Part shown: positions 2,206 through 5,118 of the stretch, in pieces
How positions within the stretch are numbered: the stretch's first letter is position 1
Layout of the letters: every line of letters begins with the position of its first letter
UHGV virus genome: UHGV-0133741
DNA from: a virus
Reading direction: 5' to 3' (one strand)
Length of the DNA stretch: 64,000 nt
Translations under genes and position numbers: made by a program
Notes under the pieces: generated by a model
Told to the model about the DNA's origin: nothing
What the model saw: the letters and a program-made list of their open reading frames with translations, nothing else
The model's database searches: none

Positions 2206-3103
2206 GCACTGGAAAAACATTACTATTTATAAACTTTCTCGTGAGGCGGATCTGACCGACTTAGAAGATAAAAAGAAAATGATCCTTTTCACGCCATGCG
2301 GTAGTCAGGATATGGCCAAGTTCGGTTTTGTATCGCCATTTGGTGATAATTCCGAAGTTATCGCTATGCATGGAAATGGTTTTATCCTTGTTGAAGCAAA
2401 GCGCGAAACAAAAATTCTTCCCCCGCCGGTTATCCAGCGAGCTATTCAAGAAAAAATTGAAAAACTTGAGCAAGAACAAGCGCGTAAACTGAAGAAAACA
2501 GAGAAGGACTCCCTGAAAGACGAAGTTCTGCATTCTCTTCTGCCACGGGCTTTTTCAAAGTTTTCTGTTATCCAGGCGATCTACGACGGTTCAACTAAAC
2601 GTATCTATATCAATGCTAGCGCGCGGCAGGCAGAGGATATGCTCGCGCTTATGCGTAAGTCTCTGGGTTCTCTTCCTGTTGTTCCCCTGAGTGTTGAAAA
2701 TCCCATTGAATTAACGCTGACCGACTGGGTACGTGATGGTAGTGCTCCACAGGGATTTCAAATGGGGGATGCGGCAGAACTTAAGGCAGTGCTTGAGGAT
2801 GGCGGTATTGCCCGGGTGAAAAAGCAGGATTTGGGAAGCGATGAAATTTCCACACACCTGGAAGCTGGCAAGCTCGTCACTAAGTTGGCACTCGACTGGC
2901 AGAACCGCATTAAATTTACACTGGACCATAACTTCAGCCTTACCAGCGTCAAATTTGCGGATGAATTGCTTGAGCAGAACTCTGATATTGATAGTGAAGA
3001 TGTTGCGCAGCGACTGGACGCAGATTTCTTCCTGTTGACCAGTGAAATTTCGTGCCTGGTTGATGCTCTGGTAAATGCCCTTGGTGGAGAGGCTAAGCAG
3101 TGA
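2198..3103 (+). CDS. hrdC: RdgC-like recombination-associated protein
   Basis: 301 aa; N-terminus [19 protein letters not shown] resembles E. coli RdgC (MLWFKNLMVYRL...); position immediately upstream of the methyltransferase as in P1. Confidence 0.8.
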
Positions 3104-5118
3104 AAGAGCTGTGCTATGGATCTGTTTGCAGTGGAATTGAAGCCGCGAGTATTGCCTGGGAACCGTTGGGTATGCGTCCGGTGTGGTTTGCAGAAATCGA
3201 GTCTTTTCCATCTGCCGTTCTTGCGCACCGTTGGCCCCATGTCGCCAATCTTGGCGACATGACAAAACTTGCCAAAAAAGTCCTGGCAGGGGAAATCGAA
3301 TTCCCTGATGTGCTCGTCGGGGGAACACCTTGTCAGGCATTCAGTATCGCGGGATTACGTGGTGGGCTTGATGATGAGCGTGGCGCGCTAACTTTAAAGT
3401 ATGTGGAGCTTGCAAATGCAATTGACGACAAACGGGCTGAGTCATTTCTCAAACCAGCAGTTATCGTCTGGGAAAATGTCCCAGGAGTCTTGTCATCGGC
3501 AGATAACGCCTTCGGATGTTTCCTTGCCGGATTGGCTGGAGAAGATGCGCCATTCGAACCAGGTGATCGACCTGAATCAGGAAAAAGTAACGCGTTCTGG
3601 CGGTGGGATGTCAAAACCGGTTGCCATGCTCCAAAGTGGCCGCAGTGTGGTTGTATTTATGGACCGCAGCGAAAAGTGGCCTGGAGAATCTTTGATGCCC
3701 AATACTTCGGAGTGGCACAACGACGCCGACGCGTGTTTGTTGTCGCAAGCGCTCGAACAGACCTCGATCCCGCAACGGTACTTTTTGAGTTCGAAGGCGT
3801 GCGCCGGAATATTGCGCCGAGCAGAGGCGAGGGGAAGGAAACTACCAGATATACTTCAAACATCGCTATCAGATCTTGCGATGATACAAACATAGTTGCC
3901 ATGGCACATGGGCAAGGAGGGGCTGAGATAAAAACCGATAATTCGGCACCAACTTTGACATGTAACCATGAAGCACCAATTGTATTGCTCGGCGACGGTA
4001 GAATGCGCCGTCTTACCCCTGTCGAATGTGAAAGGCTACAAGGTTTTCCTGATGGACATACATTGATCCCTACGGAAAAGCGTAAAAAAGTTTCTTCAGA
4101 TGAACTGGCATATCTGCGCAATCACTATCCAGATTTAAGCGAAGAAGAGGCCGCGATGCTTGCAACTGACGGACCGCGTTACAAAGCGATCGGCAATAGT
4201 ATGGCGATACCAGTAATGCGCTGGATTGGCGACCGGATTACCAAGGCTGCATGTCGGCAGAATGAAGGGCGTGAAACAAAAGAGCGAAAAGTTAAACCAG
4301 CGGCAGAATTCGAACGGTCCATATTCAAATGGGCTGGTGGAAAATTTGGTGTTCTGGAACAAATCTTTCGCTATTTGCCAGAAGGGAAGCGCCTGATCGA
4401 ACCTTTTGTCGGTGGCGGAGCTGTCTTCACGAATGCCGGATACCAGGAAAATCTGCTAAATGATGTGAATGCTGACCTGATTAACTTTTACAAGACTCTG
4501 CAACGCGAGGCGCATTCACTTATCACACTGGCGCATCGGTTTTTCCAGGACTACAACACACAGGAAGGATACCTGGCAGTACGGAATGCGTTTAACAAAC
4601 AAGTCTATGATGATTTACATCGCGCAGCGGCGTTTTTGTTCCTGAACCGACATTGTTTTAACGGATTGACGCGTTACAACCAGGCAGGTGAGTTCAATGT
4701 CGGTTATGGGAAGTATAAAACTCCGTATTTCCCATTACAGGAGATGGAAGCCTTCCTCGGTGCGGAAGGGCGTTCTGAGTTTGTATGTGGTGATTTTGCT
4801 GCGGTGATTGAAGCTGCCGGAGAAGGAGATGTCATTTTTTGCGATCCGCCATATGAACCGCTTCCAAATACAGAGGGATTCACGAACTATTCCGGTCATG
4901 ACTTTAAGTTTGAAGAGCAAAAACGCCTGGTGTCTCTGTTGACGGATGCTCATCGCCGAGGTGCAAAGGTTCTCATTACTAACAGTGGCGCGCCAAACAT
5001 CAGAGAGCTTTATCATGACAATGGCTTCAGAGTGGAACCTCTTTTTGCCAGACGTTCTGTGTCTTGTAAGGGGGACACTCGAGGTGTTGCTCATGACGTC
5101 TTAGGTATATTGCTCTAA
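3100..5118 (+). CDS. dmt: bifunctional DNA methyltransferase (C5-cytosine domain fused to Dam-like N6-adenine domain)
   Basis: N-terminal half has C5-MTase motifs ([34 protein letters not shown]); C-terminal half has Dam motifs (FKWAGGK, DPPY). GTG start overlaps the rdgC stop. Confidence 0.85.

Follow-up and report, generated by a model that had tools for sequence, protein, structure and literature searches.

Background

The closest described counterparts of the gene examined here are dmt of phage P1 and its equivalent in phage P7. In GenBank, P1 Dmt is described as a 'bifunctional DNA methyltransferase' responsible for N6-adenine methylation of GATC and 'perhaps' for C5 methylation of cytosine, and the P7 protein is described as a 'hypothetical bifunctional DNA methyltransferase', so the gene has been annotated as bifunctional since the P1 and P7 genome records. 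Packaging of P1 DNA requires a Dam-methylated pac site, and P1 dmt is essential in dam- hosts (PMC12707154, citing Sternberg and Coulby 1990). Here a stretch of 64,000 nucleotides from UHGV virus genome UHGV-0133741 (termed here the window, to which all coordinates refer) is analysed with respect to a gene that a preliminary description had likened to P1 dmt. The window belongs to a P1-like phage-plasmid (Punavirus), and the gene, which lies at 3100-5118 on the plus strand, is very probably the dmt of this temperate element: that is, a gene encoding two self-contained, S-adenosylmethionine-dependent DNA methyltransferases under the control of the C1 repressor, one of which would modify GATC and the other cytosine. 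As such it is already known, being the Dmt of P1 and its relatives, and is common and ordinary in P1-like phage-plasmids.

Within C5-cytosine methyltransferases the stretch that separates motif VIII from motif IX constitutes the target-recognition region. The multispecific C5 methyltransferases of Bacillus phages array several recognition domains within one polypeptide (PMC12707154, PMC8936443), and M.BatI, a prophage C5 enzyme whose motif I has the form CxGxxG, is active (PMC8936443).

Results and discussion

One reading frame for two methyltransferases

The dmt open reading frame (ORF) is uninterrupted from its GTG start codon at 3100 to the end of its stop codon at 5118 and encodes 672 amino acids. 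The start codon, which is also the one annotated for P1 dmt, is preceded by a GGAGAGG Shine-Dalgarno sequence and overlaps the stop codon of the upstream gene hrdC (within GTGA), and the two genes are predicted to be translationally coupled. The translation contains GGTPCQAFS (residues 74-82), ENV (125-127), QRRRRVFVV (207-215), FKWAGGK (409-415) and DPPY (582-585). Pfam detects the C5-methylase domain PF00145 in three stretches of the N-terminal part (9.9e-36) and the D12 N6-adenine methylase domain PF02086 at residues 411-643 (2.4e-56), and the NCBIfam models TIGR00675 (dcm) and TIGR00571 (dam) score 116.8 and 248 bits against curated cut-offs of 100.65 and 114.85, respectively. The assignment of both domains is far above chance. 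The preliminary description had reported motifs of both enzyme classes within a single 672-residue frame, and this is borne out: the frame is continuous, the quoted motifs are present, and Pfam and NCBIfam agree.

The C5-cytosine half comprises residues 1 to about 380 and the Dam/D12 N6-adenine half residues from about 405 to 672. Within the former, a catalytic lobe (residues 1-240; 3100-3819, plus strand as for all parts of the gene) contains motifs I, IV, VI and VIII; a target-recognition region (residues 241-302; 3820-4005) contains one short segment with a T-L signature (termed here a cassette); and a C-terminal part, delimited by alignment to M.HhaI, contains motifs IX (residues 303-317) and X (residues 363-372) at 4006-4239. 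A charged linker (residues ~381-404; 4240-4311) fills the gap left between the C5 and the Dam homologies, and its position is the point at which the fusion partner switches among homologues. The Dam-type half (D12, alpha class; residues 405-672; 4312-5115) carries KWAGGK, FVGGG and DPPY. Every catalytic motif is present in both halves, with the exception of C5 motif I, which reads CSGIEA rather than FxGxG. Identical 672-residue proteins are held at NCBI (EGK2748014.1, EMZ6121859.1 and HAL6403148.1) within a 90%-identity cluster of 991 members, and the NCBI pipeline gives the protein the name of a Dam-family enzyme only.

The allele is of the P7 type

The 672-residue Dam of P7 (AAQ07538) is equal in length to the window protein and 96% identical to it over all 672 residues, differing by scattered point substitutions only; the two agree as well in their single-cassette recognition region, in operon and in flanking C1 operators. 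Likewise, the protein of MH422554 is 97% identical over the full 672 residues. P1 Dmt (AAQ14041, 754 residues) has the same order of halves (C5, then Dam), the same gene neighbourhood and identical catalytic motifs, but its overall identity of 91% is lowered by the one block that has been replaced, the proteins being near-identical elsewhere. This block, which extends from residue 241 (just after RRNIAP) to residue 302, is unalignable between the two, with P1 Dmt having 82 additional residues; the motif VIII-IX region thus measures 88 residues and holds one cassette in the window protein versus 170 residues and three different cassettes in P1 Dmt. Because its recognition block departs from that of P1 Dmt and agrees with that of P7 Dam, the window gene is, on these alignments, the P7-type 672-residue allele, which was first described as the 'Dam' of phage P7. 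The resemblance to P1 Dmt noted in the preliminary description therefore holds with regard to synteny, DNA identity and GenBank annotation, but not with regard to the allele, which is not that of the 754-residue P1 protein. Moreover, because the recognition region has been replaced, the cytosine specificity, if any, is probably unlike that of P1.

The roughly 4.5 kb surrounding dmt is 98% identical in DNA sequence to P1-like phages, including P1, P7, RCS47, JL22 and SJ46, and shows the synteny uhr-hrdC-dmt-tRNA-Asn/Thr...ban of P1 and P7. More than 1000 plasmid records (from E. coli, Klebsiella and Salmonella) match the region, 365 of which span 80% or more of a 6.4-kb query. Within PLSDB, the DNA of the P7-type block is found (at a coverage of at least 80%) in 184 plasmids and that of the P1-type block in 257. 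In a comparison of the window, P7 and MH422554, the 62 codons of the recognition block contain zero synonymous differences, whereas the flanks show a synonymous divergence (dS) of 0.07-0.17; for these three sequences, this pattern suggests that the P7-type block has recently spread horizontally, by recombination.

The cytosine half

Searches of the PDB with the single sequence or with a mixed profile covered just the N-terminal ~130 residues (the single-sequence search aligned only residues 11-131, to M.HhaI), whereas a profile built from 33 homologues that are not fused to a Dam domain, at ~65% identity, revealed motifs VIII-X. The alignment of this profile to M.HhaI comprises four colinear segments that cover motifs IV, VI and VIII, the T-L dipeptide of the target-recognition domain (TRD), and motifs IX and X. 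In motif IV, GTPCQAFS, which includes the catalytic Cys78, aligns to GFPCQAFS of M.HhaI; motifs VI (ENV, residues 125-127) and VIII (QRRRR, residues 207-211) align to ENV and QKRER, the motif VIII segment of the profile being matched to VLNALDYGIPQKRERIY; the T-L dipeptide, which occurs as APTLTC in the window protein, is aligned together with motif IX, the latter to RKLHPRECARVMGYPD; and motif X is aligned to YKQFGNSVVINV, with its GNS motif opposite FGNSVVINV. None of these elements (PCQ with its catalytic Cys, ENV, QxRxR, motif IX and motif X) varies among the 33 homologues. The preliminary description had named, as the finding that would count against it, a half lacking key catalytic residues on careful alignment; no catalytic residue is missing from the C5 half.

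In an AlphaFold model of the C5 half the catalytic lobe is confident, and the best Foldseek matches of the model in the PDB are M.HhaI and M.HaeIII (E 1e-12, probability 1.00), with a template-modelling (TM) score of only ~0.5 owing to the poorly modelled recognition region. That the cytosine specificity is not evident from the sequence, as had been stated at the outset, is still true. The recognition region is too poorly modelled for structural inference about specificity. Avoidance or over-representation of sites in the genome is no sound guide to the target either, because a methylase that protects its own DNA leaves no dependable trace.

Selective constraints were estimated by the pairwise Nei-Gojobori procedure, as ratios of non-synonymous to synonymous divergence (dN/dS), among the window, P1, P7 and MH422554. 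The ratio is 0.12-0.17 for C5 residues 1-240, 0.02-0.14 for the Dam half, and 0.16-0.58 for C5 residues 303-400, where five of the six pairs fall at 0.16-0.28 and the highest value (0.58, for P1 versus P7) rests on two synonymous and four non-synonymous differences. Both halves of Dmt are under purifying selection. The N-terminal half has the full make-up of a C5-cytosine methyltransferase, with one short cassette, and most probably creates 5-methylcytosine at one short sequence; such methylation would be likely to pre-protect progeny DNA against restriction in the next host.

The adenine half and the pac site

The sequences of E. coli Dam crystal structures can be aligned along their whole length to residues 405-669 (1.2e-56), which also match DpnM (1.6e-43). 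Besides FKWAGGK (409-415) and DPPY (582-585), this half carries the S-adenosylmethionine loop FVGGG at residues 436-440, and it retains residues K9, N120, L122, R124 and Y138 of E. coli Dam (as K410, N521, L523, R525 and Y539, respectively). The roles of E. coli Dam residues in GATC recognition and DNA contact are those seen in EcoDam-DNA structures. The Dam halves of the window protein and of P1 Dmt differ by a single amino acid; to judge from this near-identity and from the literature on P1, the adenine half would methylate the A of GATC.

A P1-type pac site is located within pacA (ORF at 29451-30644, followed by pacB at 30644-32128), at 29644-29832 on the plus strand. It consists of four TGATCA hexamers followed, ~90 bp later, by three TGATC(A/G) hexamers, plus one more, and it is the densest GATC cluster in the window (8 GATC per 200 bp versus ~0.8 expected). 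The preliminary description had proposed that the adenine half could satisfy a GATC-rich pac site, and this argument holds, such a cluster being present within pacA of the same window. In P1 the adenine half is known to maintain the seven pac hexamers in the methylated state that the PacA/PacB pacase requires for cutting and for the onset of headful packaging, by which the phage is freed from dependence on host Dam.

Regulation

A C1 operator lies upstream of uhr-hrdC-dmt at 1833-1849 on the plus strand. Its sequence, GTTGCTCTAATAAATAT, has two mismatches to the consensus ATTGCTCTAATAAATTT and a single mismatch to the annotated P1 Odmt, and it is the equivalent of P1 Odmt/Op68. A divalent C1 operator (Oban a/b of P1, formerly Op72) at 5109-5136 overlaps the dmt stop codon: positions 5109-5125 (plus strand) correspond exactly to the consensus ATTGCTCTAATAAATTT, and an inverted partner at 5120-5136 (minus strand) has two mismatches. 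These operator sites coincide with sites annotated in P1 and P7, and the divalent operator, by its sequence, appears to mark the start of the following C1-controlled unit (tRNAs...ban). Because the operon of which dmt is the last gene sits behind a C1-repressor operator, dmt should be repressed, and hence silent, in the lysogen and should be expressed upon prophage induction.

Within dmt, a predicted late promoter annotated in P7 as LPdam2 is conserved at 4088-4106 (AAGTTTCTT...TGAACT), while P1 is altered at the -22 element. At 4156, 3' of this sequence, Met353 is encoded by an in-frame ATG that is preceded by an AAGAGG-like ribosome-binding site, and a Dam-only product from this internal start is conceivable. 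LPdam2 was left out of the model proposed here, being a prediction only and one in which P1 differs.

Weighing the alternatives

Several observations weigh against the reading of dmt as a C1-controlled gene for two active methyltransferases. Motif I of the C5 half, CSGIEA (residues 10-15), lies by register opposite FAGLGG of M.HhaI, with the first Gly kept and the second being Glu; the AlphaFold model is of moderate quality (mean predicted local distance difference test score, pLDDT, 67; predicted TM score 0.70), with a pLDDT below 50 in the recognition region; three DNA-contact positions of E. coli Dam are changed (Y119F, P134G and R137K), as they are in P1 Dmt; and the timing of expression is read solely from matches to operator sequences. 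In the searchable literature, which addresses the GATC/pac role only, no experiment was found that demonstrates production of 5-methylcytosine by the Dmt of P1 or P7 or that defines the sequence it would target; likewise, the GenBank notes on C5 activity go no further than 'perhaps'. Finally, McrBC+ E. coli K-12 supports the growth of P1, which would be awkward if cytosines preceded by a purine were heavily methylated (R-m5C). An explanation that is unlikely, though it deserves to be taken seriously, is that only the Dam half is enzymatic and that the C5 half is dead or nearly so, being either kept as a DNA-binding or folding module for Dam or else a decaying remnant. The deviation of motif I from FxGxG, the 'perhaps' of GenBank and the failure to find a demonstrated 5-methylcytosine target in the searchable literature all favour this, as do the Dam-family name assigned by the NCBI pipeline and a CRISPR interference (CRISPRi) screen in which P1 dmt was dispensable for plaques on a dam+ host (PMC10695390). 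Yet alleles actively swap their recognition regions, as would hardly be expected of a dead domain; the PCQ Cys, ENV, QxRxR and motifs IX and X are intact and are invariant at ~65% identity; dN/dS in the C5 core is 0.12-0.28 and not ~1; and the same scaffold occurs both stand-alone and joined to a second, unrelated Dam family (PF05869). As for motif I, CSGIEA is invariant in 33 of 33 homologues and, because of this, is better regarded as a family trait than as decay; M.BatI, whose motif I is comparable, is active (PMC8936443). Under the preferred reading, in which both halves function, this allele would possess both enzymatic activities and its cytosine half would serve an anti-restriction role.

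It is very improbable that the single reading frame is artefactual (through a frameshift or the assembly fusion of two genes) or that the halves are normally separate proteins. Although ON470615 lists a 'DNA adenine methylase' and a 'type II 5-methyl-cytosine DNA methyltransferase' separately, the CRISPRi study lists dmt-A and dmt-B (PMC10695390), and the predicted LPdam2 is conserved along with the Met353 ATG and its ribosome-binding-site-like AAGAGG, the frame is unbroken here, in P1, P7 and MH422554, and throughout a 991-member cluster from independent assemblies; the junction contains no stop codon or change of frame; and the internal promoter is a prediction from which P1 deviates at the -22 element. 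An assembly or frameshift artefact was rejected because the same ORF occurs in ~1000 database sequences. A separate question is whether the methylase has a nuclease partner. The preliminary description regarded it as an orphan without an adjacent restriction enzyme, and an orphan it is as far as the window shows: no restriction enzyme occurs within ~5 kb on either side of dmt, and Pfam finds no nuclease domain in the neighbours upfB, upfC, uhr, hrdC, plp, upl, the SPFH protein and ban or in the larger ORFs (~200 residues and above) scanned elsewhere in the window, none of the scanned window ORFs being EcoP1I-type res or mod. That Dmt nevertheless belongs, as the modification enzyme, to a restriction-modification system with its nuclease gene elsewhere on the element would be helped by the fact that only 64 kb of a ~95-kb element is in view, and P1-family phages often carry restriction-modification elsewhere (such as EcoP1I res/mod in P1). 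However, EcoP1I has its own Mod subunit and no need of Dmt; the larger window ORFs turned out to specify DarA, DdrB, Ref, Cre, PacA/B, fimbrial and other functions, with no restriction enzyme among them; the ~5 kb on either side of dmt is devoid of nuclease domains; and the nuclease-free uhr-hrdC-dmt arrangement recurs in the 365 plasmid records covering at least 80% of the region. Such a partnership is extremely improbable.

Recognition cassettes in related enzymes

A homologue search with the C5 half retrieves thousands of proteins. For a census of cassettes, the motif VIII-IX segment was taken from the best 120 homologues and cassettes were defined by regular expressions devised for this analysis. 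Within this set the segment ranges from 87 to 343 residues in length and is assembled from short cassettes that recur from protein to protein and bear T-L-type signatures (for example, GTLRAREQE); at least 22 cassette types were distinguished, and the 107 proteins carry 1-8 cassettes each, in 58 different architectures. In this notation the window allele consists of cassette 'C' alone and P1 Dmt of 'n-l-o', and further Dam-fused alleles are 'a-n', 'x' and 'p-d'. The alleles of P1-like elements differ by whole cassettes, and relatives bearing arrays of them are found in Enterobacter, Klebsiella and E. coli prophages.

The C5 scaffold occurs in three forms--stand-alone, fused to a D12 Dam domain, and fused to PF05869 (a phage 'Dam' of an unrelated Dam family). 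Because the scaffold is also joined to PF05869, the design in which a C5 and an N6-adenine methylase are combined has arisen or been reshuffled more than once. Relatives fused to PF05869, all outside the window, are P0047, P0097, P0103, P0108, P0109 and P0113.

A tentative generalisation, whose chances fall somewhat short of even, is that the C5 half belongs to a large and apparently undescribed Enterobacteriaceae prophage family in which T-L cassettes of ~25-45 residues are used combinatorially and are swapped by recombination at the motif VIII/IX borders. If so, the family would be an enteric counterpart of the multispecific enzymes of Bacillus phages, and the window gene would be its minimal, monospecific member. 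A literature search for comparable arrays in enteric phages found none, which is not proof of novelty.

Certain Dmt alleles of P1-like elements differ in another way. These are 1013 residues long and contain a 340-residue intein (with Hint and LAGLIDADG homing-endonuclease domains) inserted exactly at the catalytic motif, as GGTP|C...VVHN|CQAFS, which is equivalent to codon 78 of the window gene (~3331); the catalytic Cys of PCQ is then the +1 extein residue. Alleles of this kind, again from outside the window, are P0030, P0034, P0091, P0123, P0128, P0129 and P0132, of which P0123 alone is on 44 contigs. A literature search found no paper that mentions a Dmt intein.

Gene neighbourhood

The P1-type gene order starts with upfB and upfC on the minus strand. 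UpfC (1467-1751) is PAAR-like, with a near-threshold PAAR match of 26 bits versus a cut-off of 27; in the P1 annotation it is compared to T4 gp5.4. The first gene of the operon, uhr (1921-2205, plus strand), has the length and position of P1 uhr and P7 upf64.0, and a Pfam scan found no domain in it. Directly upstream of dmt, hrdC (2198-3103, plus strand) encodes a recombination-associated protein of the RdgC family (PF04381, 8.5e-98); read from the ATG at 2198 it is 906 nucleotides long, as is P1 hrdC.

Beyond the divalent C1 operator, on its 3' side, are genes for tRNA-Asn and tRNA-Thr (5791-5944), which in the P1-type order are followed by plp and upl and then by a tRNA with a CAT anticodon. 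The latter, at 7748-7823, is called tRNA-Met by ARAGORN, whereas its P1 homologue is annotated as tRNA-Ile2 (with a lysidine-modified CAT); an Rfam scan of 5000-8200 found nothing beyond these three tRNAs. At 6676-7720 Pfam identifies an SPFH/Band-7 protein (PF01145, 1e-30), which is accompanied by a small membrane ORF. This locus replaces tciA/tciB/tciC of P1, and the same arrangement is seen in MH422554 and in many plasmids. Beyond the tRNA with the CAT anticodon come ban (8103-9473), which encodes a DnaB-type helicase, and an ORF at 9473-10471 with a weak, sub-threshold match to glycosyltransferase group 1 (25 bits versus a cut-off of 26.4).

The rest of the window carries pacA, pacB, c1, cre, ref (35694-36359), ddrB and darA. 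Between ref and the lysozyme/ddrB/darA region is a cargo block (~36400-51100) that is not on the P1 map. Among its products are one protein with DUF4145 and one with a RelA/SpoT domain (38089-39225), as well as a protein resembling DsbA (41661-42302) and a chaperone-usher fimbrial pair (43057-46183).

Implications

The preliminary description correctly recognised a textbook phage gene, to which the present analysis adds little beyond the finding that the allele in this element is of the P7 and not of the P1 type. What remains is the old 'perhaps'--that is, whether the cytosine half is active and what sequence it targets. This question has become more tractable: a single recognition block with clean borders is all that separates the two common alleles, and the cassettes themselves turn up again, variously combined, in many other prophage enzymes. 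The window allele, with its single cassette, would be a convenient scaffold for assigning one motif to one cassette. If the cassettes are independent recognition modules, then a few methylome experiments could be enough to read out the specificities of a whole family of phage methylases directed against restriction; such enzymes are invisible to routine single-molecule real-time (SMRT) methylomics because 5-methylcytosine is poorly detected.

Comparison with known systems

Beyond its P1 and P7 counterparts, Dmt may be compared with three groups of described enzymes. The C-terminal half is homologous over its full length to the GATC-specific D12 enzymes E. coli Dam and T4 Dam, and most GATC-contacting residues are kept; unlike E. 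coli Dam, however, it is fused to a second methyltransferase, is phage-encoded, and is predicted to be controlled by a repressor rather than serving as a housekeeping enzyme. The N-terminal half shares with M.HhaI-type enzymes the fold, the motif order (IV, VI, VIII, TRD, IX, X) and the Cys in PCQ; it departs from them in its CSGIEA motif I, in an insertion of ~40 residues between motifs VI and VIII, and in having no partner endonuclease.

The window allele is unlike the multispecific enzymes of Bacillus phages in that its recognition region holds one cassette in 88 residues rather than tandem TRDs, and it is at most monospecific. The hosts differ (Bacillus versus Enterobacteriaceae), and the likeness drawn here is one of architecture; but just as the enzymes of SPR, phi3T, rho11s and H2 contain several recognition domains, relatives of the C5 half carry 2-8 tandem T-L cassettes, and, like the Bacillus-phage enzymes, they are prophage enzymes whose expression is expected on induction.

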